A DNA stretch of 18,614 nucleotides from an uncultured archaeon (GTDB taxonomy: Archaea > Asgardarchaeota > Lokiarchaeia > Sigyniarchaeales > SOKP01): assembly GCA_964632315.1 (NCBI GenBank), contig CAZWEM010000064.1:1-18614 (forward strand), written 5' to 3'. A program made the position numbers and the translations under genes. How positions within the stretch are numbered: the stretch's first letter is position 1; each line of letters begins with the position of its first letter. Below, one piece after another: positions 1 through 14,720 of this stretch. Below the pieces are notes generated by a model. That model was not told the DNA's origin, ran no database searches, and worked only from the letters and a program-made list of their open reading frames with translations.

Positions 1-345
1 GTAATTAAGATTCAAGATGCAAGTGAAGCTTACGCTGCTTGTGGAGGGTGTATATTTGGTTTCTGGTTCATACACAAGCTTCAACCTTGGATTGATGGAC
101 TTAATGGGATCACTGGAAGATCTTACAATGTAGAAAGTTTCATGAGAGCGGGTAAAGAAATAGTTGAAATGAAGAGAATTTTTAACGTCAATTGTGGGAT
201 AACAAAAAAAGATGATAATTTCGGTACTAGGTTCTCAATTCCTCTGGAAAAAGGTGGGTCAAAAAAAAATGTCCCCCCCTTAGAGCTATTATTAGAGAAA
301 TACTATGAAATAAGAAATTGGGATGCTCAAGGTAAACTAAGTTAA
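1..345 (+). CDS. aor: Aldehyde:ferredoxin oxidoreductase family protein, C-terminal part (5'-truncated by the window edge)
   Basis: Frame 1 is open from base 1: VIKIQDASEAYAACGGCIFGFWF...LNGITGRSY...RAGKEIVEMKRIFNVNCGITKKDD...EKYYEIRNWDAQGK. This matches the AOR C-terminal pattern (QD...C.F, TG, R.FN...G....DD, YY..R.WD..G). The track ORF 142..345 is only its tail. Confidence 0.85.
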   Translation, partial: VIKIQDASEAYAACGGCIFGFWFIHKLQPWIDGLNGITGRSYNVESFMRAGKEIVEMKRIFNVNCGITKKDDNFGTRFSIPLEKGGSKKNVPPLELLLEKYYEIRNWDAQGKLS

Positions 346-1247
346 AAATCTTTGAATTTAAAATCTGAAAAAATCTTTTTTATTTCTTCCTTTTTTTCTT
401 TAGATAACCATTCAGAATGAATATATGATGGAGTTAATCCAATCTTTTTTGGTTTAGTTAACCAGAGGGGATTATAAGGTAGTAATCCGATCTTTTTAAT
501 ATTGAGGGAATTCAAATAACTTGCGAGCGCTCTTAAGTTATCTCTTGTATCAGTTATTGATGGAATTAAGGGTATTCTCGGAAGAACATGAATTGTACCA
601 TTGTTAATGAGAGATTCAAAATTCTTTAAAATCCTTTCATTAGATATACTACAATACATTTTATGATTTTCAAGATTGAAAAGCTTTAAATCAAAATATA
701 TGAGATCAGCATAAGGTAATATTAATTTTTCAAATTTTTTTCGATTATAAAATCCACTTGTTTCAATGCAACTATGTATTCTTTCCTTCCTTAATTCCTT
801 CAATAGGTCGTGAACATAGTTAATGTGATAAAGAGGCTCTCCTCCTGAAAGCGTAACCCCACCACCAGAATTATCATAAAATATCTTATCTTGTAGGATT
901 ATTTGCATGAGATCAGCTATGGAATATTGCTTTCCTACAAACTTTAGTGCATTATTTGGGCAAACATCTACACACATACCACATAAATTACACTTGGTAC
1001 GGTCTATCCGAAATTCATAGGTAAACCTTATAGAATTCTGATCACATGAGGAAATACACTTTCCACATTCAGAACAGACATCTTCATCAAAAGAAATCTC
1101 TAATGATGGTGATTTTGTCTCAGGATTTTGACACCATACACAAGAGAGAGGACAACCTTTAAAGAAAACTAAAGTTCTAATCCCTGGACCATCGTCAAGT
1201 GCATTACGTTTTATGTCCACTATGAGTGTTTTAGTCCTTGACATCAT
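342..1247 (-). CDS. Glycyl-radical enzyme activating enzyme (radical SAM) with a 2x[4Fe-4S] ferredoxin insert
   Basis: DGPGIRTLVFFKGCPLSCVWCQNPE (CxxxCxxC), ferredoxin motifs CSECGKCISSC and CNLCGMCVDVCP, GGVTLSGGEP, IETSG and LLPY. It lies directly downstream of the GRE. Its stop codon overlaps the AOR stop by 4 nt. Confidence 0.96.
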   Translation of the reverse strand: MMSRTKTLIVDIKRNALDDGPGIRTLVFFKGCPLSCVWCQNPETKSPSLEISFDEDVCSECGKCISSCDQNSIRFTYEFRIDRTKCNLCGMCVDVCPNNALKFVGKQYSIADLMQIILQDKIFYDNSGGGVTLSGGEPLYHINYVHDLLKELRKERIHSCIETSGFYNRKKFEKLILPYADLIYFDLKLFNLENHKMYCSISNERILKNFESLINNGTIHVLPRIPLIPSITDTRDNLRALASYLNSLNIKKIGLLPYNPLWLTKPKKIGLTPSYIHSEWLSKEKKEEIKKIFSDFKFKDF

Positions 1248-1283
1248 ATTAAAAATTAAAAAATAAAAAGATTGATTTTTGAA

Positions 1284-4247
1284 TCATCTTGCTTTATATT
1301 CATGCCGTTCGATAATCTCTAATTGCATGTTTTTATTGAGTTTGGTGAAGTAAGCATTGTATCCCGAGACTCTTACTAATAGCCACCTGTAATCAATAGG
1401 ATTCGCCATCGCATCTCTCAATGTATCAGAGGATATGACGTTAAATTGCCACTGCATTCCATTCAAGTCAAAAAAGCTTTGAACATAGCTCGTGAAAAGA
1501 TCGAGTGTTTCCCCATGACTATCTCCTGGATGAGGTACTAATTTCACATTAAAAGAGGCATTATTAGCCATTTTAAGGTAATCTAATGCTGCTACACTTT
1601 TAATACTTGGAAGTAGTATATCAGTAGTACCTGGTGCAGGTGTTAAACCAGGAGTTAAAGCTTTTCCTTTTTTGCGCCCCGATGGTAAAGCGCCCGTTAA
1701 CATACCAAAACCTGTATGGTAACTTATTGACCAGTAACCAACTAAATACTTTCCACTTCTATAATTTTCAGCTGAATTGTAAATATTATAACAAAAATCA
1801 ATTATATCTTGAGCCAATTCAACGGTACCATCTTCACCAGAGCCAAATTTGGGCACTTGCTCGATCTTATGTAGAATTGACTCGTATCCTTCAAAATCGT
1901 TATCAATGGCATCCTTTAAGGTGGAAAAATTAAACTCTTTTTTATCATAGATAAGATCTTTAATAACTAATAAACTATCAACTACATCGGTTAACGCAAC
2001 CAGAGCAACTCCGGAAGTATTGTAGATTGCTCCACCTTGAACGAGATCCTTAGCTTTTTCTAAGGGTCCTTCATAAAAACTGGATAAAAGAGGTGTTGGA
2101 TGAATATATTTATGTGATTCTCCTAGAAAATTATTGATTTCAATTGATTGTTCCGCTAAATATTTTAATTGTGCTTTATAAGCATTGAGAAAATCTTCGA
2201 AATTTACAAAATTTATTCTTACATCCCCAGTTTCAATACCTGTCTTTTCTCCAGTCAACGGTATTATTCCGTTATTTAATGCCATTTCTAAAGGAGCGAC
2301 CATATTTAAAAGCATGCAATTGGTATGACCGTAATGTTTTCCGACAATAGTAGGCTCGACGCATCCAGTTGCAGCCCAATTTCTAGCATCCTCTAATAAA
2401 AATCCTTCATGAACTAATGCTTCGATCATTGTTTGATCATTATGAATGCTCGGGGATGCTCCCATGTTCATATTCACTTCAGTTAAACGACGTAAATATT
2501 CTTTTGAATTTATCCCTGAATAATATCGAGCATTCATATTAGGGTCTTGAAATCCTAGCATTTCATTCGTTTTTAAGATGATATATGACATGTCATTCAC
2601 AGCGTTCTTTCCTTCCCTGTCAATTCCTCCTACTGTGACCGTGTCATCCGAAGAACTACCGCCAAATAATTTCCAACCTACATTAGGCATTAAGGGATCA
2701 TGATCATTGATTCTAACAAAGAGTGACCCTACTAGTTCAATTGCTTTTTTTATGACTTCTTCTTTTTCTTCCTCGTTTTTTGCTTGCTTAATCTCTTTCA
2801 AAAAGAATGGTTGGAGCATCTGATCTAATCTACCAATTGATAGTGCTGAGTTTGCATTCTCGCAATGTAAGCAAACAAAACTCGTCCAAATAGACTGAAT
2901 TGCTTCATAAAGTGTCTCTGCAGGTTTGGCGGGTACCTTTGCGCATATTCGGGAGATTTCTTCCAATTCCTCAATTCTTTTTGCTTGTTTTGGATCATTG
3001 GGATCTAAAGTCTTAACAATTTTCAAGGCTTCTTCGTTTAAATTATTCGAATATGTTAAGACACCATCTAAAGCGATTTGAATTGCTTTATAGAAATTTT
3101 TTTCCTCCATAGATTTGGCATTTTCTTCTAATTTTTCTGCCTTATTTTTCATACTATCTATTCCTTCATTTAGGATCGTGGGGAATCCAGGAACAGTATG
3201 CGAGATAGCGTTCGTCTTCATCATAAAATAGAAAACCCAGCCTTCCTCAAGTTTTTGGGATTTAGGATAGTTAAATTTGGTCCTACAATATTCTCTAACA
3301 CTACGTTCCATCCAATACGGAAACACTTCTAAACTCAAGATATCGGCATCTTTATCAGAAATATCGTTAGGATTGAGCTCTCTCTCGCCTATTGTTTTAA
3401 GCTCTGGCCAAATAGCTGTAGCGATTAATTCGGGGTACATAGGTATTCCAACTTCTTTTGAGGTCGTAGAACCAGCAATGAGATGATTATCATGAATAAT
3501 TGGTTTTTTATGAGTCATTATATAATTTACTGCTCCCGCTTGACGTAGTTCGGGATCAAAAGGGTTTCCATCCTTATCTACCTCGAATCCATTCTCTTTA
3601 TGAAACTCTGTCACTAACTTTGCCCGTTCTACGCATATTGCTGGCTTTAAAGCAAATCGCCTGTTTTTCAAATATTTTAAACGAGGAAAATCATCGAGTG
3701 TATATTTTGCTAAATACGGATCATCAAGACCTTCAACATTATCAACCTTTCTATTCAGGCTTTCATTCTGTAGTTTTCTACTCTTCTCTCCACTGTCAAT
3801 ATCTTCGATAGGGTATATTAACCGATTTTCAGGTCCCTTATAATCCTTAATCTTTGCTCCCATAACGAGGGATGTGAGATACGAAAACTTGGTGAGATAT
3901 GACATATTGCCTGTATAGCCCATCTCATTAGTTAAAAGATAATCAAGTGATTCTTCGGCACTCTTGTTATAAAGATTCGCTAAAGTTTCCTTATCTTTAT
4001 AATAGATCGTGATATTTGGGTCTTCAATTTTTCCATCAGCTACGGTCATTTTCCCATCTTTGAAGATTACATTTACATTGACCGCATCATCCTTCGTAGT
4101 AAATTGATATTTCGCATTAAAAGTGAACCCGGTTTTTTCATTGTGAATTTCTCGTCTCATTTTTCTTCGAGTATCAAATATCATTGCCAGTAGGTTTAGT
4201 TGTTCCTTGAAGTTTTCAATCTCTTTATCAACATCTAAAGCTTGCAT
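1284..4247 (-). CDS. Glycyl radical enzyme (non-PFL, eliminase-like GCVE type) with an N-terminal SCP2-like lipid-binding domain
   Basis: Gly-radical loop LLVRVSGYNAYF (RVSGY at 1359-1373), Cys loop WAATGCVEP (GCVE at 2355-2366), SIGRLDQ, PKFG, GALPSGR and QFNV. Start placed at ATG 4247 (MQALDVD..., 987 aa) because the track's GTG at 4286 lies inside the promoter inverted repeat. Confidence 0.93.
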   Translation of the reverse strand: MQALDVDKEIENFKEQLNLLAMIFDTRRKMRREIHNEKTGFTFNAKYQFTTKDDAVNVNVIFKDGKMTVADGKIEDPNITIYYKDKETLANLYNKSAEESLDYLLTNEMGYTGNMSYLTKFSYLTSLVMGAKIKDYKGPENRLIYPIEDIDSGEKSRKLQNESLNRKVDNVEGLDDPYLAKYTLDDFPRLKYLKNRRFALKPAICVERAKLVTEFHKENGFEVDKDGNPFDPELRQAGAVNYIMTHKKPIIHDNHLIAGSTTSKEVGIPMYPELIATAIWPELKTIGERELNPNDISDKDADILSLEVFPYWMERSVREYCRTKFNYPKSQKLEEGWVFYFMMKTNAISHTVPGFPTILNEGIDSMKNKAEKLEENAKSMEEKNFYKAIQIALDGVLTYSNNLNEEALKIVKTLDPNDPKQAKRIEELEEISRICAKVPAKPAETLYEAIQSIWTSFVCLHCENANSALSIGRLDQMLQPFFLKEIKQAKNEEEKEEVIKKAIELVGSLFVRINDHDPLMPNVGWKLFGGSSSDDTVTVGGIDREGKNAVNDMSYIILKTNEMLGFQDPNMNARYYSGINSKEYLRRLTEVNMNMGASPSIHNDQTMIEALVHEGFLLEDARNWAATGCVEPTIVGKHYGHTNCMLLNMVAPLEMALNNGIIPLTGEKTGIETGDVRINFVNFEDFLNAYKAQLKYLAEQSIEINNFLGESHKYIHPTPLLSSFYEGPLEKAKDLVQGGAIYNTSGVALVALTDVVDSLLVIKDLIYDKKEFNFSTLKDAIDNDFEGYESILHKIEQVPKFGSGEDGTVELAQDIIDFCYNIYNSAENYRSGKYLVGYWSISYHTGFGMLTGALPSGRKKGKALTPGLTPAPGTTDILLPSIKSVAALDYLKMANNASFNVKLVPHPGDSHGETLDLFTSYVQSFFDLNGMQWQFNVISSDTLRDAMANPIDYRWLLVRVSGYNAYFTKLNKNMQLEIIERHEYKAR

Positions 4248-4275
4248 AATTATTAACTCGCTAAATTTAACTAAG

Positions 4276-4302
4276 TAATATATCACATCTTATGATATAT
4301 TA
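4276..4302. promoter_or_regulatory. Perfect inverted repeat TAATATATCA-N7-TGATATATTA; probable operator in the divergent GRE / CrtI-like promoter
   Basis: Arms 4276-4285 and 4293-4302 are exact reverse complements. The right arm overlaps a BRE/TATA-like GAAAGGTTAATATA on the minus strand (about 4296-4309). Confidence 0.6.
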
Positions 4303-4400
4303 ACCTTTCAATTATCCAAATTAGGCATAAAACCATTGTAATTATAGGTAATATTAAATTTAACTTCAACATTGAAATAAATATATTATAATTAGGTAGT

Positions 4401-5975
4401 ATGATCATGAGCGAAAATGAACTAGATACGATTGATGATTCGTATGACGTAGTCATCATCGGTGCGGGAAATGGTGGACTTGCGGCAACTGCTTTTCTTG
4501 CTCAAAAAGGCTTGAAGGTATTAATGTTAGAACAACATAACTTACCAGGTGGTGTTGCAACGAGTTTTGTGAGGGGGCGATTTGAATTCGAAACTTCCTT
4601 ACATGAACTCGCAAGTTATGGTCCTGAGTCCAATAAGGGTAGCATTAGACGAATGTTTGAGGATATGTTCCAATTAGACACTGAATTTGTTCAAGTTCCT
4701 GAAGCATATCGTTTAATTGTAACTCATCCTGAAGAGAAAATGGATGTTTCTATTCCATTTGGAGTTGAAAACATGATTGATGCTATTGAAAAAGAAGTAC
4801 CAGGTAGTAGGGAGTCTGTTAGAAACTTTTTTAGGTTAGCAAAGGAGATAGGGGAAGCTTTTTCTTATATAGGATCAACTGGGGGAAATCCAGATCAAAC
4901 CTTATTGCTTAAAGAACACGCGAATTTTCTTAAGACTGCAGCCTATTCAGCACAAGAAGTTGAGGATGCGTTGGGCATCCCTAAAAGAGCCCAAGATATT
5001 TTAAATGGATATTGGGCATATTTAGGCCTACCCATAAGCAGAATTAATTTTACAATTTATGCTGCGATGGTTGATAATTATGCAGATTTAGGAGGTTGGA
5101 TACCAACAAATAGATCTCATGGATATACAACAGCATTTGATGAAAAGATTAGGGAGTTTGGTGGAAGAATAGAATATAACACAAGAGTAGATAAGATTCT
5201 TGTCGAGAATGGTAAAATAGTAGGAGTGGAAACCGTTAATGGAGACAAAATTAAGACCAGTTATGTAATATGTAACGCATCTCCAACATTAACATATAAT
5301 AAACTAATTTCTCCCAAATCAGAAGTTCCGGAAATAGCCTATAAAGATGTAAATGCACGCATTCATGGATTGACGGGGTTTGTTATTTATGTTGGATTAG
5401 ATGCTTCAGCTGAAGAGTTAGGATTAAATGAATATGGTTATTTTATCATGGATAGCATGAATACGGAAGAAGTATATGATTCGTGGACATCTCTTCAACC
5501 ACCTGAAGGTCTTGCTTGCGTGGTTCTTAACAATGCACTCCCCGATTGTTCCCCTCCTGGGACGTGTATCTTAGATATAACTACGCTTTTTAGACCAGAA
5601 GCTTGGGAGAATGTAAAACCAGAAGATTATTATAATATTAAGAATGAAATCGCCGAAAAACTTTTAATTAAGTTCGAGAAAGCTACGGGGGCACCTATAA
5701 GAGAGCACATTGAAGAAATAGAAATTGCGACCCCAGTTACTTTCGCACGCTATACAAGGCATTATAAAGGAATTTTTTATGGATACGAGCCAGAATCATG
5801 GGATTCTATTGTCCCTAGATTAATGAGCATGGGAAAGGATGTATACATTGAAGGTTTAGAATTTGCAGGAGGATTTAACAGGCGTCTACATGGATATAGC
5901 AGTTCCATGGGAGATGGACTAATTTCGGCTCAATTAACTTATGCTAAAATAATGAAGGAGCGTGAGAAAGCATGA
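4401..5975 (+). CDS. Phytoene desaturase (CrtI) / all-trans-retinol saturase family FAD-dependent oxidoreductase
   Basis: Rossmann motif DVVIIGAGNGG, LEQHNLPGG, FVRGRFEF, C-terminal IEIATPVTFARY and EGLEFAGG; 524 aa. The start could also be ATG 4407. Confidence 0.88.
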   Translation: MIMSENELDTIDDSYDVVIIGAGNGGLAATAFLAQKGLKVLMLEQHNLPGGVATSFVRGRFEFETSLHELASYGPESNKGSIRRMFEDMFQLDTEFVQVPEAYRLIVTHPEEKMDVSIPFGVENMIDAIEKEVPGSRESVRNFFRLAKEIGEAFSYIGSTGGNPDQTLLLKEHANFLKTAAYSAQEVEDALGIPKRAQDILNGYWAYLGLPISRINFTIYAAMVDNYADLGGWIPTNRSHGYTTAFDEKIREFGGRIEYNTRVDKILVENGKIVGVETVNGDKIKTSYVICNASPTLTYNKLISPKSEVPEIAYKDVNARIHGLTGFVIYVGLDASAEELGLNEYGYFIMDSMNTEEVYDSWTSLQPPEGLACVVLNNALPDCSPPGTCILDITTLFRPEAWENVKPEDYYNIKNEIAEKLLIKFEKATGAPIREHIEEIEIATPVTFARYTRHYKGIFYGYEPESWDSIVPRLMSMGKDVYIEGLEFAGGFNRRLHGYSSSMGDGLISAQLTYAKIMKEREKA

Positions 5976-7204
5976 ATAAAGAAAATGAAGAAAAATTAGA
6001 AGTGACTGTAAAAAGCAACACGAAAGATTTATTTGCTTTTACCAAATTAGTAGCTGAAAGACAAAAAAGAATTGAGCGAGCATCTAGTGAACCAATTACA
6101 AAAGATCCAATTAATGATTTAGCCAGAAAAATACATCCAGATGTTCAATACTTAGTGATTGACGAAATCAAGGTTGAAACGAAATCTACAAAAACTTTTA
6201 AGCTCGTCCCTGATCCTGATTCAAGTACTAAAGAATTAGCAATTTTTAGATCGGGACAATATTTATCTCTAAAGGTAAAGGTAAATGATGTCACCATAAC
6301 TCGCCCATATTCTATCGCTTCATCGCCTAAAGATGCACTAAACGGATTTTATGAATTAACGATTAAAAAAGAGGAGCATGGCTTTTTAACCAGTTATATT
6401 TGGGATAATTGGAAGGTTGGTGCCAAAATTGAAAGTTCTGGTCCCGAAGGTTTTTTTTATTATGACCCTCTAAGAGATTTTAAACATATTGTTGGCATTG
6501 CTGGAGGATCGGGGATAACTCCTTTTAAATCGATTGCGCTGTCAATTATTGAAGGAAATATTGATGCAAGGTTAACCGTTTTATATGGAAGCAGTGATGA
6601 AGATGATATTATTTATTACGATGAATTTCAAGCTTTAGAGAAAGATTATCCTGATAAATTTAAATTTATTCACGTTTTAAGTTGCGAGGTCGTGTCTCTT
6701 GAAGGTTGTGAAACAGGGTTCATAACAAGTGATTTGATTGAAAAATATTGTGATGTTAAAACCAGTTCTTTCTTTATATGCGGACCGCAAATCATGTATA
6801 ATTTTTTGGATAATGAGATGGCCAAATTTGAATTACCCCCTAAAAAGATTCGAAAGGAAGCATTCGGTGAAGTTAAAGATGTCCTTTCTATCCCTGGTTA
6901 TCCTCAAGAATTAGCCGAAAAGACTTTTAAGATAACCGTGCACGTTGGTAATTACAGTAAAGTTATCCCTGCAATCGCCACAGAATCAATTTTAGTAGCA
7001 TTAGAACGAGCCAATTTTGCACCTCCAGCAAAATGTCGTTCAGGAGAATGTGGTTTTTGTCGATCTAAGTTAATTTCTGGAGAAGTGTTCATAAGTCCAA
7101 TTTCAGATTGGAGGCGCAAAGCTGATAAGAAATTCAATTACTTCCATCCGTGTTCGTCATATCCAACTTCAGATATTGAAATTGTGATCCCACGGACACT
7201 ATAA
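5972..7204 (+). CDS. FAD/NAD(P)-binding ferredoxin reductase with a C-terminal plant-type [2Fe-2S] domain (PaaE/KshB/PDR-like architecture)
   Basis: FRSGQY, RPYS, GPEGFF, AGGSGITP, CGP, EAFG and CRSGECGFC...C. ATGA overlap with the upstream gene indicates translational coupling. Confidence 0.92.
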   Translation: MNKENEEKLEVTVKSNTKDLFAFTKLVAERQKRIERASSEPITKDPINDLARKIHPDVQYLVIDEIKVETKSTKTFKLVPDPDSSTKELAIFRSGQYLSLKVKVNDVTITRPYSIASSPKDALNGFYELTIKKEEHGFLTSYIWDNWKVGAKIESSGPEGFFYYDPLRDFKHIVGIAGGSGITPFKSIALSIIEGNIDARLTVLYGSSDEDDIIYYDEFQALEKDYPDKFKFIHVLSCEVVSLEGCETGFITSDLIEKYCDVKTSSFFICGPQIMYNFLDNEMAKFELPPKKIRKEAFGEVKDVLSIPGYPQELAEKTFKITVHVGNYSKVIPAIATESILVALERANFAPPAKCRSGECGFCRSKLISGEVFISPISDWRRKADKKFNYFHPCSSYPTSDIEIVIPRTL

Positions 7205-7275: not shown

Positions 7276-8727
7276 TTGGTAATATCAAAATTGGATATTC
7301 GAATCAAATATGGAATTTCTGCATTCATTGTAATTCTGTTTCAATCCGCAATAAAACTACTCGGAGTTATTCTAACTGGAAGTTTAAGTTTTTTATCAGA
7401 AACGGTCGATACTCTCACTGATATCTTCTTTGTATTAATTACATTGTATTCTTTGTATGTCAGCATAAAACCAGCAGATTACGAGCACATGTATGGACAT
7501 GCTAAAATTGATGATGTTGCTGCGATAGTTCAAGGAATTATATTGGTTAATATCTATGTATTTCTAATAATTAATGCTATTCAAACATTATTAAGAGGGG
7601 TAGAAGTCATAGAAAATGCTAGGTTAGGATTTGAACTACTCATTATTTCATTTTCCGTTAATATAGTTTTTTCTAGATTATTAATTTGGCAGGGAAAGAA
7701 GAAGAATAGTCTTACTCTTCAATTACAAGGATTAAACTTGTTTCAAGATTCACTTAGAGCGATCTTAGTAATTTTCAATTTCATTATTGTGATTTTTTTT
7801 AATTTCACTCTTTTAGATCCTATTTTTAGCATAATATTATCAGTTTGGATAATAATAAGCGCCATAAAAATCGCAATTGAGGGAATCAAAGAAGTGATTG
7901 ATGTAAATCCAATTGATGCAATGATTTTGGAAAATTTGAAACTGCAAATCTTTAATTTGGAACATGTGAACGGGGTAAAAGATCTTAAAGTAAGAGCATC
8001 AGGTCGAAACTTATTTCTAGAAGTTCACTTATCAGTAGAAGATCATATCTCAATAGTGCATGCGGATGAAATAATAAAATCAATACGAACAATGAGTGAA
8101 ACTTATTTCCCGAATTTTATAGTTGAAACCATAATTGAAATGAATCCTTTAAGTGGAGAAGCCTCGTTAAGTGGAGAAATAATTAATTTATTACATTCAA
8201 TTATGAGTGAATTTGAAGAAATTGTTGAATTTAAGGATGTAAATGTTTTTAGCATTGAGGATAGATATTTTTTGAGTTTAATTATTATTGTAGATAATGA
8301 TCTCACACTTGATCAAGCTCATAATGCCTCATCCAAATTAGAGGCTTTACTAAAAAAGCAGGTTCCACTTATTTCACGGGTTATAACTCATATAGATTCT
8401 GAAGTAAAAGTAAAAGAACCAGAGCAAATTGTATGCGAAGCAATTAGCAATGAAGATATGACTGAAATAAGAGAAATCATTGGAGATATATTAAAGAAAG
8501 ACCCTCATGCAAAAGGTTATCATGGATTAGAGTGCTGGAATGCTTTAAATAGATGCATATTAGAGCTACACGTTTTTTTTGATGGTTCTCTGAATATCAC
8601 TGACGTACATAATTACGTGAGTTTACTTGAAGAGGAAATAAGAGAACACGTGAAATTATTTAATTTAAATGACATCATCTTACATTCTGAGCCCGAAAAA
8701 GATCGCACGAATGGAGTGATCTTTTAA
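7276..8727 (+). CDS. Cation diffusion facilitator (FieF/YiiP-like) with three tandem C-terminal cytosolic domains
   Basis: Hydrophobic N-terminal domain with DTLTD, KPADYEHMYGHAK and NLFQD, then three repeats of the CDF dimerisation domain ending IEMNP, THID and LHSEP. TTG start. Confidence 0.9.
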   Translation: MVISKLDIRIKYGISAFIVILFQSAIKLLGVILTGSLSFLSETVDTLTDIFFVLITLYSLYVSIKPADYEHMYGHAKIDDVAAIVQGIILVNIYVFLIINAIQTLLRGVEVIENARLGFELLIISFSVNIVFSRLLIWQGKKKNSLTLQLQGLNLFQDSLRAILVIFNFIIVIFFNFTLLDPIFSIILSVWIIISAIKIAIEGIKEVIDVNPIDAMILENLKLQIFNLEHVNGVKDLKVRASGRNLFLEVHLSVEDHISIVHADEIIKSIRTMSETYFPNFIVETIIEMNPLSGEASLSGEIINLLHSIMSEFEEIVEFKDVNVFSIEDRYFLSLIIIVDNDLTLDQAHNASSKLEALLKKQVPLISRVITHIDSEVKVKEPEQIVCEAISNEDMTEIREIIGDILKKDPHAKGYHGLECWNALNRCILELHVFFDGSLNITDVHNYVSLLEEEIREHVKLFNLNDIILHSEPEKDRTNGVIF

Positions 8728-8756: not shown

Positions 8757-9860
8757 TTAAAAGTCAAATTTATATTGCCTTAATCCTAACTCTTTCTGCA
8801 TGGTCTTGATGTCATTTTGCAAGCTCTTATTTAATGGTATGCCCGCTTTTTTACGATTTTGTTCAGCCATATATTCTTTTTCTCCAGCAGTGTATATCTT
8901 TTTCTCATTAGGATCTAATTTAGCGCTCCTGAGACCTCGCATAATATTTCCAGCGGTTTTTATAAATTGATCTTTTCCTATAAACGCTTCAGTATTAATT
9001 GCTAAAAAGAAATGCCCAACTTTCAATCGTTTTTGACCGTTTTCTTCTATTCCAAGAGTATCGCGTAAAAAAATTCCATTCTGCAAGGCTGCGGATAATA
9101 ATTCTACGACCGTGGCATATCCGTAACCTTTATATCCAGCTGTTTCTTCTCCTTTACCTCCAAGAGGTAACAAAGCGGCTTTTCTTTGAAGCATATCAGA
9201 TAATATTTGATTTGGATCTGTTATGAATTCTCCATTATCATTTATAACTGTATTCTGTGGCATTGGTTTGTTAATTCTACTATTTGCTTCGACTTTTCCT
9301 CTCTGAATTATGCTTGTGGCACAATCAATTAGAAAGGGAAAGTTTTCATCTGTAGGTGCTCCAATTGTTAATGGATTAGTACCTAACATCGGTTCTACTC
9401 CGAATGTGGGTGGGATCGAAGGTCTTGCATTTGTGACTGCTAAACCAATCATCCCCTCTTTTATTGCCATTAAGGAATAATAACCAGCAATTCCGAAGTG
9501 GGTAGAATTTCTCACAGCTACAGCCCCTAAACCATACTTTTTAGCCTTTTCAATCGCATTTTCCATTGCCCTATGGGCAATAACATGGCCCATACCGCAA
9601 TTACCATCCCAAAGAGCTGTGGTTGGTCCGTCTTTAATAACATCAATTTTTGTATTTACTTCGTAAATACCTTGTTTTATCCTATCATAATACATTTTAC
9701 ATCTTTGAATTCCATGAGAATCTATTCCTCTTAAATCGGAGGTGATTAGCACATTAGCGATGATTTTTGCATCATCATTTGGTATTCCTAACCCAATAAA
9801 AACATCTTTCATGAAATTTTCAAGAATTTCTGCTTCTAAATATACAACCTCATCCGTCAT
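8757..9860 (-). CDS. Ldh_2 family (malate/L-lactate/L-sulfolactate dehydrogenase-like) oxidoreductase
   Basis: SDLRGIDSHG, NSTHFGIAGYY, GTNP, DCATS, GYKGYG, GHFFLAI and GEKE. Confidence 0.92.
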   Translation of the reverse strand: MTDEVVYLEAEILENFMKDVFIGLGIPNDDAKIIANVLITSDLRGIDSHGIQRCKMYYDRIKQGIYEVNTKIDVIKDGPTTALWDGNCGMGHVIAHRAMENAIEKAKKYGLGAVAVRNSTHFGIAGYYSLMAIKEGMIGLAVTNARPSIPPTFGVEPMLGTNPLTIGAPTDENFPFLIDCATSIIQRGKVEANSRINKPMPQNTVINDNGEFITDPNQILSDMLQRKAALLPLGGKGEETAGYKGYGYATVVELLSAALQNGIFLRDTLGIEENGQKRLKVGHFFLAINTEAFIGKDQFIKTAGNIMRGLRSAKLDPNEKKIYTAGEKEYMAEQNRKKAGIPLNKSLQNDIKTMQKELGLRQYKFDF

Positions 9861-13501: not shown

Positions 13502-14590
13502 ATGAAAGCACCTGAACGAATTTTAAAAACAATTAATCATGAAGAACCAGACAAAGTACCCGCATTCGAAAGCGCATTCACAAATAATACAATTATGGAG
13601 CATTACGGAATAGATCCTCGCACTGCGGGAGGTTATAAAGGGCTTTACGAATTTTCTCGAAGAGTAGGAATCGATCTAGTACTTAGTATCGGTAGCTTGT
13701 TTCCTAAAAAATTTCTTAAGAGGGGGCAGGGTTTTATCGATGAATATGGAAGGCATATGAAATTTGAGACCTATGAAGATGGAACTCAAATATTAGCATA
13801 TCATGGGGGGCACTTCAAAAATTTCGAAGATTATGAAAGTTGGGGACAACCAGACCCCAATAATCCAGCAAGATTAAAGCAATTTTTTGATGGGAGAGAA
13901 GTACAAAAACAATTGAACGATGAGGTATTTTCTATTCCCGCTGTTGGAGCATTGATGGAGTGTTCGTGGGAAGGTTTTGGCCTAGAAGCATTTTCGAGAA
14001 TCCTCAGAAATCCTAAACACACTCAAAAAGTATTCGATGATCGAGGTAAATTTACCTTGGAAGTAGTGAAGATAATGGCAGAAAATGAGGCTAAAATGGT
14101 TCTTTTATGGGATGATTACGGTTTCAAGAATGGTCTTTTCATGCGACCAGATTTATATCGAAAATACATATTTCCTTGGATTAAACGGATATGTGATGCT
14201 GCTCATAAACGAGATTGTAAAATATTGCTTCATTCAGATGGTGATTTAATTGAAATATTCGATGACATTATCAAATGTGGCGTAGATGCTTTAAATCCAA
14301 TTGAATCAACGACAGCTAATCCAGACTATGATATTTTTAAGTTAAATGAAAAATATGGAAAAAAAATTACTTTTGTGGGCAATTTGAGCCCAATAATGCT
14401 AGCAATTGGGGAAATTTCAGAAATTGAAAATTATGCCAAGCGATTAATTAGAGAATTAGCCCCTGGAGGAGGTTACATTTTTAGTTCCGGTCATAGTATC
14501 AATCCAGCAATCACGATTGATAGGTTTGAAGCAATGCAGAATATAAGGAGGAAATTTGGCAGCTACCCTATTAATGTTCCTAACAATTAA
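13502..14590 (+). CDS. Uroporphyrinogen decarboxylase / MtaA-CmuA methyltransferase family protein
   Basis: HEEPDKVP, DEYG, WDDYGFKNG, LHSDG, GVDALNPIE and GGGYIFSSGHSI. ATG at 13502 is preferred over the track's TTG at 13472. Confidence 0.85.
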   Translation: MKAPERILKTINHEEPDKVPAFESAFTNNTIMEHYGIDPRTAGGYKGLYEFSRRVGIDLVLSIGSLFPKKFLKRGQGFIDEYGRHMKFETYEDGTQILAYHGGHFKNFEDYESWGQPDPNNPARLKQFFDGREVQKQLNDEVFSIPAVGALMECSWEGFGLEAFSRILRNPKHTQKVFDDRGKFTLEVVKIMAENEAKMVLLWDDYGFKNGLFMRPDLYRKYIFPWIKRICDAAHKRDCKILLHSDGDLIEIFDDIIKCGVDALNPIESTTANPDYDIFKLNEKYGKKITFVGNLSPIMLAIGEISEIENYAKRLIRELAPGGGYIFSSGHSINPAITIDRFEAMQNIRRKFGSYPINVPNN

Positions 14591-14720
14591 TCGAAAATTT
14601 TCACATTGACTTCTAACTTGTTTACCATTTGTAATATCACTGGAATATATAAAACTATTTTAAAATGAAATTACGGTTTATTTAAAGAGATCTTAAATAC
14701 CTCAATAAATTAATTCATTT

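Follow-up and report, generated by a model that had tools for sequence, protein, structure and literature searches.

Do five genes lying side by side in the genome of an uncultured Asgard archaeon encode one pathway of anaerobic lipid breakdown, or do they represent modules inherited separately? This question is raised by an AT-rich (28-36% GC) stretch of 18,614 nucleotides (nt), referred to here as the window, from contig CAZWEM010000064.1 (C64) of genome assembly GCA_964632315.1 (G000; Lokiarchaeia; Sigyniarchaeales; SOKP01). The window encodes (i) an aldehyde oxidoreductase (AOR), (ii) the activase of a glycyl radical enzyme (GRE), (iii) a GRE with an N-terminal SCP2 domain (SCP2-GRE), (iv) a CrtI-like flavoenzyme and (v) a reductase. 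An earlier note had located all five genes, as the open reading frames (ORFs) and the Pfam and NCBIfam matches agree, and had combined them into one putative pathway co-regulated from a shared spacer, with the GRE responsible for the removal of a head group or ether, the CrtI-like/reductase pair for the (de)saturation of a polyprenyl chain and the AOR for the oxidation of the aldehyde; its purpose would be the scavenging of membrane lipids in anoxic sediment. Our analysis leads, with moderate confidence, to another explanation: the locus probably consists of separately inherited modules which share a fatty-substrate theme, and is not one fixed pathway. A functional core composed of GRE, activase and AOR, leading from a hydrophobic alcohol via an aldehyde to an acid, is well supported. 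Genomes, contigs and loci are cited below, where necessary, by their G, C and L numbers.

A probable glycyl radical eliminase fused to an SCP2 domain

The SCP2-GRE gene (positions 1284-4247, minus strand) encodes a protein with PFL-like (E 6e-160) and Gly_radical (E 5e-22) domains. The start predicted by the ORF finder was a GTG codon at 4286. Since approximately 120 full-length homologues (982-1000 amino acids, aa) align from the ATG codon at 4247, the protein is 987 aa long and the spacer separating its gene from the divergent CrtI-like gene is 153 bp. The protein may be divided into an N-terminal domain (residues 1 to ~130; 3858-4247), a linker (residues ~131-187; 3687-3857) and a catalytic barrel (residues 188-987; 1284-3686).

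Residues 1-187 are not covered by any solved GRE structure, and the Pfam match of the N-terminus to SCP2 (PF02036) is below the gathering score (15.9 bits vs 21.3; E 0.017). An AlphaFold2 model of residues 1-200, built with 28 family members, was confident over residues 10-130, with a predicted local distance difference test (pLDDT) score of 85-92 over residues 10-90. The top Foldseek matches of this domain are all SCP2 folds, namely UbiJ-SCP2, AF1534 SCP2, the SCP2-like domain of SdsA1 and human SCP-2L (entries 6h6p, 3bn8, 2cfu, 1ikt and 6z1w; E 2e-5 to 1e-3, probability 1.00, template modelling (TM) score relative to the target 0.62-0.70). According to the model, the first ~130 residues are a true SCP2 fold, as the earlier note had recognized from the sequence. 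The domain shows 47-89% identity across 28 Asgard and bacterial members. The linker was modelled with low confidence (pLDDT 36-49 over residues 131-176) and is of conserved length throughout the family.

The barrel (PF02901, 534 bits; PF01228, 79 bits) is closest, among solved structures, to A. fulgidus PflD (2f3o), followed by propanediol, hydroxyproline and glycerol dehydratases and CutC; eliminases match it at E 1e-112 to 1e-102, and PFL is far weaker. Its catalytic residues are the thiyl Cys629 together with Glu631 (motif GCVEP), His350, and Gly962, the site of the glycyl radical (RVSGY). These residues correspond to C433, E435, H164 and G763 of glycerol dehydratase 1r8w, and none of the four varies among 13 members from both domains of life. 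His164 of glycerol dehydratase is reportedly, according to computational work, the proton donor to the leaving group. Because the Cys, Glu and His equivalents are kept, the machinery for radical 1,2-elimination next to a hydroxyl is intact, which agrees with the aldehyde-releasing GRE proposed in the earlier note.

The remainder of the 1r8w pocket is replaced (D447 by N643, S282 by A468, H281 by S467, and Y339/Q340 by D534/D535). The loss of the diol-binding S282 and D447 equivalents means that the GRE is not a strict glycerol or propanediol dehydratase. Residues D534 and D535 are located in a loop (FGGSSSDDTVTVGG, residues 528-541) that is invariant from Asgard archaea to Desulfatibacillum. 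The protein does not reach the NCBIfam cut-offs for eliminases (PFL2-3, 535 bits vs 678; HypD, 436 vs 1100; CutC, 424 vs 1050). Judging from these residues and scores, it appears to work like an eliminase, yet to belong to no characterised eliminase family.

Members of the SCP2-GRE family were found in Asgard archaea, Desulfobacterota, Syntrophomonadaceae, Spirochaetota and Bdellovibrionota, and one is encoded by the cultured strain Desulfatibacillum alkenivorans DSM 16219. In the GRE tree (loci L009-L078), the Asgard SCP2-GREs form one clade, with a Shimodaira-Hasegawa-like approximate likelihood ratio test (SH-aLRT) support of 97, which is nested among sequences of Desulfobacterota and other bacteria that make up a grade. 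A transfer from bacteria to Asgard archaea is suggested by this topology, although the rooting leans on a long outgroup branch. The same archaeal phylum contains a second, distant GRE subfamily (~980-1015 aa), whose N-terminal domain is 35-39% identical to that of the window's SCP2-GRE (G237:C115:6972-7529, G165:C17:334461-335012, G192:C10:25783-26373, G264:C112:80196-80756 and others); in some genomes it coexists with the close SCP2-GRE type. The window's own genome carries approximately 8 GRE paralogues, 15 AOR genes and about 18 enoyl-CoA hydratase genes. One of the GRE paralogues (C19:26989-28944) is placed beside hydratase genes, of which one is apparently split (C19:25874-26389 and 26459-26683).

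Recurrent neighbours of SCP2-GRE genes

The activase gene (342-1247, minus strand) is located 36 nt downstream of the GRE gene; its product, a radical SAM enzyme with an inserted two-cluster ferredoxin domain, contains Radical_SAM and Fer4 matches and exceeds the cut-off of TIGR02494 (298.4 bits vs 174.35). The AOR gene (1-345, plus strand; C-terminal 114 aa, AFOR_C, E 1e-22) converges on the activase gene, as had been noted earlier, with an overlap of 4 nt. The final 55 nt of contig C21 (G000:C21:63995-64049) are identical to nt 1-55 of the window, and this exact overlap indicates that C21 and C64 are adjacent in the genome and that the AOR gene is split by the assembly only. The two AOR pieces (511 aa on C21 and 114 aa in the window) align to residues 1-501 and 484-595 of the orthologue in locus L015. 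The joined AOR comprises 607 aa and contains both AFOR_N and AFOR_C, which are already present in the C21 piece.

For comparison, we analysed 70 related loci from species-representative genomes: 48 Asgard loci (labelled Promethearchaeota/Loki, Hod, Hermod, Thor, Odin, Freya and Jord) and 22 bacterial ones (Desulfobacterales, Desulfosudaceae, Desulfatibacillum, Syntrophomonadaceae, Bacteriovoracaceae, Spirochaetales and others). Neighbouring genes were identified by clustering of 922 called ORFs and cross-checked by tblastn. This analysis revealed that an activase gene adjoins the SCP2-GRE gene in 39-41 of 71 loci, and that an AOR gene is present within 10 kb in 29 of them (22 archaeal and 7 bacterial), compared with a chance expectation of ~7% calculated from the 15 AOR genes of the window's own genome (4.45 Mb). 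The GRE/AOR neighbourhoods show at least six different gene orders.

In the AOR tree, 20 GRE-adjacent Asgard AORs form one clade (SH-aLRT 100), which includes the window's AOR, excludes the 14 other AOR paralogues of the same genome, and spans convergent and co-directional arrangements. The GRE-adjacent AORs of bacteria fall into two further clades. Since the GRE-adjacent enzymes occupy three separate clades, an AOR has been recruited beside an SCP2-GRE at least three times. This repeated recruitment is, we infer, the strongest support obtained here for an aldehyde as the product of the GRE.

Genes of fatty acid metabolism recur in the same neighbourhoods. An enoyl-CoA hydratase gene is found near the SCP2-GRE gene in 14 loci (4 archaeal, 10 bacterial), an acyl-CoA synthetase gene in 5, and a gene for a 602-aa acyl-CoA dehydrogenase directly upstream in 4 bacterial loci; TetR regulators are encoded in 4 loci. 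In L062 (Desulfobacterales), genes for an acyl-CoA synthetase, an enoyl-CoA hydratase, an AOR, an acyl-CoA dehydrogenase and the SCP2-GRE are located on one strand. These beta-oxidation operons around bacterial and some Asgard relatives provide independent support for a fatty substrate. Genes for phosphoesterases also adjoin the SCP2-GRE gene (HAD type in L039, metallophosphoesterase in L049 and L058), which hints at the unmasking of a hydroxyl on a phospholipid backbone. Moreover, a protein of ~207 aa with no Pfam match is encoded near the SCP2-GRE in four bacterial loci (L039:9174-9797, L046:2318-2947, L062:13039-13668 and L050:22530-22949).

Proposed reaction of the core

The following reaction may be proposed for the first module. 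The activase would install the glycyl radical on Gly962 of the GRE, and the SCP2 domain would bind a water-insoluble, hydroxyl-bearing molecule and offer it to the barrel. There, Cys629 would take a hydrogen from the carbinol carbon, Glu631 would deprotonate the hydroxyl, and His350 would protonate the leaving group (OH, OR or amine) on the neighbouring carbon. This 1,2-elimination would yield an aldehyde, which the dedicated AOR would convert to a carboxylic acid with the reduction of ferredoxin. In relatives, the co-encoded acyl-CoA synthetase, acyl-CoA dehydrogenase and enoyl-CoA hydratase would feed the acid into beta-oxidation. Long-chain 1,2-diols, alkyl- and dialkylglycerols, and amino-alcohol lipids are candidate substrates consistent with the data.

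The SCP2-GRE has the same barrel as the B12-independent glycerol dehydratase of C. butyricum (1r8w) and the GRE 1,2-propanediol dehydratase (5i2a), as well as CutC and HypD (E 1e-105 to 1e-108). It shares with the two dehydratases the glycyl radical motif, the thiyl Cys, the Glu, the His164 equivalent, an adjacent activase with a ferredoxin insert, and a predicted aldehyde product used by a neighbouring enzyme. It differs from them in its ~190-residue N-terminal SCP2 domain and linker, in its altered polar pocket, and in being accompanied by a W-type AOR and beta-oxidation genes instead of a microcompartment or an alcohol/aldehyde dehydrogenase. The best structural sequence match, A. fulgidus PflD/PFL2 (2f3o; E 1e-112 over residues 200-981), whose function is unsettled, shares the Ala at the S282 position, but is a protein of 776 aa without an SCP2 domain and has Asp at the D447 position, where the SCP2-GRE has Asn. 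Fusions of SCP2 to a catalytic domain, in which it is thought to recruit a hydrophobic substrate, occur in the alkylsulfatase SdsA1 (2cfu) and in peroxisomal MFE-2/SCPx. In these proteins, however, the SCP2 domain is C-terminal, and the chemistry is that of a metallo-beta-lactamase sulfatase or of a dehydrogenase, hydratase or thiolase.

To our knowledge, no characterised GRE eliminase acts on a lipid, the known substrates being small and polar. The literature searched contained no publication on an SCP2-fused GRE, on a GRE acting on ether lipids, or on the Desulfatibacillum GREs of this family, and a search on Asgard CrtI-like genes was equally negative. It likewise yielded no O2-free enzyme for the breakdown of ether lipids, long-chain diols or sphingoid bases, and the sole alkylglycerol-cleaving enzyme described requires O2. 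The SCP2-GRE family, repeatedly tied to AOR and beta-oxidation genes, is thus a concrete candidate for anaerobic lipid chemistry in anoxic sediments, and its member in D. alkenivorans DSM 16219 makes the question directly testable.

The CrtI-like/reductase pair

The second module consists of a gene for a CrtI/CrtISO/RetSat-like FAD enzyme (4401-5975, plus strand; NAD_binding_8, Amino_oxidase), which is the first of three copies in the genome, and a gene for an FNR-type reductase with a C-terminal plant-type [2Fe-2S] domain (5972-7204, plus strand; FAD_binding_6, NAD_binding_1, Fer2). The two genes overlap by 4 nt (ATGA). The CrtI-like protein, whose close relatives constitute a large Asgard expansion, carries the GAGNGG motif of an N-terminal FAD-binding fold. 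Its AlphaFold2 model (pLDDT 86) most closely resembles gamma-carotenoid desaturase 4rep (E 6e-29, TM 0.76/0.81), followed by CrtI 4dgk (E 2e-20). The reductase contains the motifs RPYS, GGSGITP and C-X4-C-X2-C-X29-C and is below all NCBIfam equivalog cut-offs (PaaE, 140 bits vs 421). It always follows the CrtI-like gene, in all three copies of the window's own genome and in 9 further loci.

Some of the copies are found in lipid-related surroundings. The third pair of the genome, on contig C1, is placed between genes for a long-chain acyl-CoA ligase, two enoyl-CoA hydratases, an MFS transporter and a FadH-like reductase. The copy of Syntrophomonas adjoins an acyl-CoA synthetase gene, and that of G147 a gene for a lipase-type hydrolase. 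The paired module is present in two of the five bacterial SCP2-GRE genomes searched. The CrtI-like protein of Bacteriovoracaceae G305 is 53-55% identical to the window's CrtI-like copies (53% and 48% identity for the Bacteriovoracaceae pair) and that of Syntrophomonas G304 is 34% identical. In G302 (Desulfosudaceae), a CrtI-like match of only 29% identity would have coordinates in conflict with those of the GRE and acyl-CoA dehydrogenase genes if its contig C1 were the contig of L046; it is taken here to lie on another contig, an assumption about contig identity.

Retinol saturase and CrtISO depend on reduced flavin or hydrogenate a C=C bond. Carotenoid isomerase is the best NCBIfam match of the CrtI-like protein (E 1e-33), whose fold, as described above, is nearest to carotenoid desaturases. 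Unlike these two enzymes, however, the protein scores far below the cut-offs (116.9 bits vs 586.9 for carotenoid isomerase; 85.5 vs 238.1 for crtI_fam), and it has a dedicated reductase partner, which has been described for neither of them. No carotenoid-pathway gene was present among the annotated neighbours in the window and related loci, the whole genome not having been searched for crtB.

A closer parallel in architecture is limonene dehydrogenase CtmAB of Castellaniella defragrans, a COG1233 flavoenzyme that operates with the [2Fe-2S] ferredoxin CtmE and the NADH:ferredoxin reductase CtmF in anaerobic isoprenoid breakdown (PMC4109377). In both systems a CrtI-family flavoenzyme is served by a 2Fe-2S and NADH-reductase chain. 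The archaeal system differs in having one CrtI-like subunit instead of an A/B heteromer, and in the fusion of ferredoxin and reductase into one FNR-type protein. Ctm requires a high-potential acceptor (PMC12583861), which is ill-suited to a fermentative Asgard archaeon, and for this reason reduction or isomerisation is likelier than oxidation. The module, encoded twice around the GRE and once elsewhere, would then be a two-protein flavoenzyme in which electrons from NAD(P)H travel via the FNR/[2Fe-2S] protein to the FAD cofactor of its CrtI-like partner; the most likely activity of the latter is the reduction or isomerisation of a C=C bond of an isoprenoid or acyl chain. The pair constitutes a second uncharacterised system, possibly a C=C reductase for lipids in anaerobes.

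The second copy was placed by the contig join. Read on the plus strand, C21 continues into the window in the order FAD_binding_4 protein, DUF1848 protein, 243-aa ORF, second CrtI-like protein, second reductase, radical SAM/SPASM protein and complete AOR, and hence CrtI-like/reductase pairs bracket the GRE core on both sides. The same bracketed arrangement is found in G174, G267 and L015. For the radical SAM gene that separates the second reductase gene from that of the AOR, a role as tungsten-cofactor maturase was considered, but it scores only 64 bits with TIGR04317 (cut-off 380) and has its best match in the uncharacterised PTO1314 family; no function is assigned to it. The genes for the FAD_binding_4 protein (569 aa, distantly GlcD-like), the DUF1848 protein and the 243-aa ORF (L084, G000:C21, 4902-8442) always precede the second pair, and in 11-14 Asgard loci this trio is encountered again on the downstream side of the GRE core. 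The Desulfosudaceae locus L052 likewise has a DUF1848 gene (13651-14640), 0.7 kb downstream of its SCP2-GRE gene. Two disrupted genes of this module were encountered: in L042 (6365-7628; metagenome-assembled genome of Promethearchaeota), the reductase gene beside the CrtI-like gene is broken into two ORFs (250 and 228 aa) by either a frameshift or an assembly error, and a third-type CrtI-like gene (G064:C150:32844-34340) contains one in-frame TGA.

The divergent spacer

The GRE and CrtI-like genes diverge from the 153-bp spacer (4248-4400; 20% GC), in which the earlier note had correctly seen a perfect palindrome. This sequence (4276-4302; TAATATATCA-N7-TGATATATTA) is a 10+10 inverted repeat with a 7-nt gap. 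The palindrome is absent from all 17 orthologous CrtI/GRE spacers, which weighs against the single pathway. It was found only once in the 4.45-Mb genome, and inverted repeats with arms of at least 10 nt arise by chance in 3-4.5% of shuffled or Markov-simulated spacers of the same composition, so that it is only mildly improbable. A conserved operator was rejected on these grounds. The GRE-proximal arm is located 29-38 nt upstream of the GRE ATG, where the TATA box of an archaeal leaderless or short-leader transcript would be expected. The palindrome is therefore probably one or two back-to-back TATA-like boxes.

Is the pair linked to the GRE?

What remains to be decided is whether the flavoenzymes belong to the core. 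The divergent CrtI-like/GRE arrangement is kept in 17 loci and in at least 11 genomes of the window's genus, and the second, paralogous pair abuts the AOR gene in the window's own genome, G174, G267, L015, L018 and L038. Each module alone, moreover, has lipid or acyl-CoA contexts elsewhere. In a survey of 301 genomes of the phylum, the close SCP2-GRE was found in 28 and close CrtI-like types (at least 50% identity) in 36: GRE and pair occur together in 21 genomes, the GRE only in 7, the pair only in 15, and neither in 258. The respective numbers for the 69 genomes of the window's family are 21, 3, 13 and 32, the pair thus being present in 21 of 24 genomes with the GRE vs 13 of 45 without it (odds ratio ~17, uncorrected for phylogeny). 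These data speak for the single pathway of the earlier note, whose lipid theme is borne out by the GRE/AOR recurrence and the beta-oxidation context. The membership of the CrtI-like/reductase pair fared less well: AOR genes recur in both domains, but adjacency of the pair is confined essentially to the window's genus, to which all 11 genomes with this arrangement in the survey belong. In the GRE tree, a single clade of 24 rows, corresponding essentially to this genus, holds every locus with an adjacent pair; this indicates one origin of the adjacency, which was lost again in a nested AlaRS-GRE-activase-AOR sub-clade and in L022 and L065. Unrelated CDF, Ldh_2, MPG and URO-D genes are equally syntenic within the clade, which marks the neighbourhood of CrtI-like and GRE genes as ordinary inherited synteny. 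In G264, a member of the genus, the block of Ldh_2, CDF, reductase and CrtI-like genes is retained, with a fucosidase gene at the place of the GRE. In the 15 remaining Asgard loci and the 22 from bacteria, neither a CrtI-like nor a reductase gene was found within 10 kb of the GRE; moreover, the palindrome is not conserved, and the cluster contains no isoprenoid-specific gene. We regard the pathway as drawn in the earlier note as unlikely; a single co-regulated pathway including the flavoenzymes is possible but unproven. The observations on single origin, shared synteny, the G264 block, the missing adjacency in the bacterial and remaining Asgard loci, and the palindrome would equally be expected if the pairs were unrelated to the GRE/AOR core and their proximity were merely inherited gene order in one genus, as would the situation in the sister genus g2, in which both modules are present on separate contigs, the pair among phosphate-transport genes. 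Chance neighbourhood is nevertheless rather unlikely, given that two of the three pairs of the window's own genome lie within 13 kb of its sole SCP2-GRE gene, that these two are old paralogues (53% identity) which occupy different positions and both stay beside the core in several genomes, that GRE and pair co-occur in the family as described, and that G305 and G304 carry the paired module. The co-occurrence is real, and modules with a common theme account for the evidence better than a fixed pathway does. In the window's genus both kinds of module lie together and may act on the same lipid pool. The striking divergent arrangement should accordingly be taken with caution, as genus-level synteny and not as a conserved operon design.

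Different functions of the GRE itself have also to be weighed. Asgard GREs were annotated as alkyl- or benzylsuccinate synthases (Ass/Bss) in a study of Hermodarchaeota, on the weak grounds of 29-33% identity and a single catalytic Cys (PMC8163825), and the SCP2-GRE family is present in the alkane/alkene degrader Desulfatibacillum. A hydrocarbon-activating enzyme of this kind is nonetheless highly improbable, and we rejected it: the barrel is far closer to eliminases than to MasD (6e-59) or TutD (2e-50), it retains the eliminase Glu (Cys-x-Glu) and the equivalent of His164, the 71 loci show no recurrent cluster of small-subunit genes, and the partner is an aldehyde oxidoreductase, not the product of succinyl-CoA transferase or mutase genes. 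A more specific form of our own explanation, which must be considered a long shot, is that the SCP2-GRE is an O2-independent ether-lipid lyase. Its reaction would begin with hydrogen abstraction at the free carbinol of an alkylglycerol, or of a dialkylglycerol such as archaeol, and lead to elimination of the alkoxy or hydroxyl group next to it; the aldehyde would pass via the AOR to beta-oxidation, and in the window's genus the flanking pairs would saturate or isomerise isoprenoid or acyl chains. Such an enzyme would be the anaerobic counterpart of alkylglycerol monooxygenase, with a role in membrane-lipid recycling by sediment archaea and sulfate reducers. The monooxygenase, which is relevant only under this assumption, cleaves glyceryl ether lipids to a fatty aldehyde or alcohol; it is an O2- and tetrahydrobiopterin-dependent di-iron membrane enzyme with no sequence or mechanistic relation to the SCP2-GRE. 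With two invariant Asp residues in the pocket, an amino-alcohol lipid (a sphingoid base) is equally conceivable as the substrate. Several points weigh against the modular explanation and its fatty substrate as a whole. The Desulfatibacillum loci L049 and L058 have no AOR, activase or beta-oxidation gene within 10 kb. The part of the pocket that holds glycerol is replaced, so the reaction could differ from simple dehydration. SCP2 domains also bind acyl-CoAs, which makes a thioester conceivable as the substrate in place of a free lipid. The co-occurrence counts ignore phylogeny, are not meant as a statistical test and are inflated by kinship, and the CrtI/reductase link goes back to a single origin of adjacency in one genus.

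Flanking genes

Two further genes of the window are syntenic with the cluster within the genus, namely that for a CDF cation-efflux protein (7276-8727, plus strand) and that for an Ldh_2-family dehydrogenase (8757-9860, minus strand). Both are probably not part of the GRE cluster. The CDF protein is long (483 aa) and contains, after its transmembrane domain, three ZT_dimer stretches, a repeated cytoplasmic tail that is unusual for the family.

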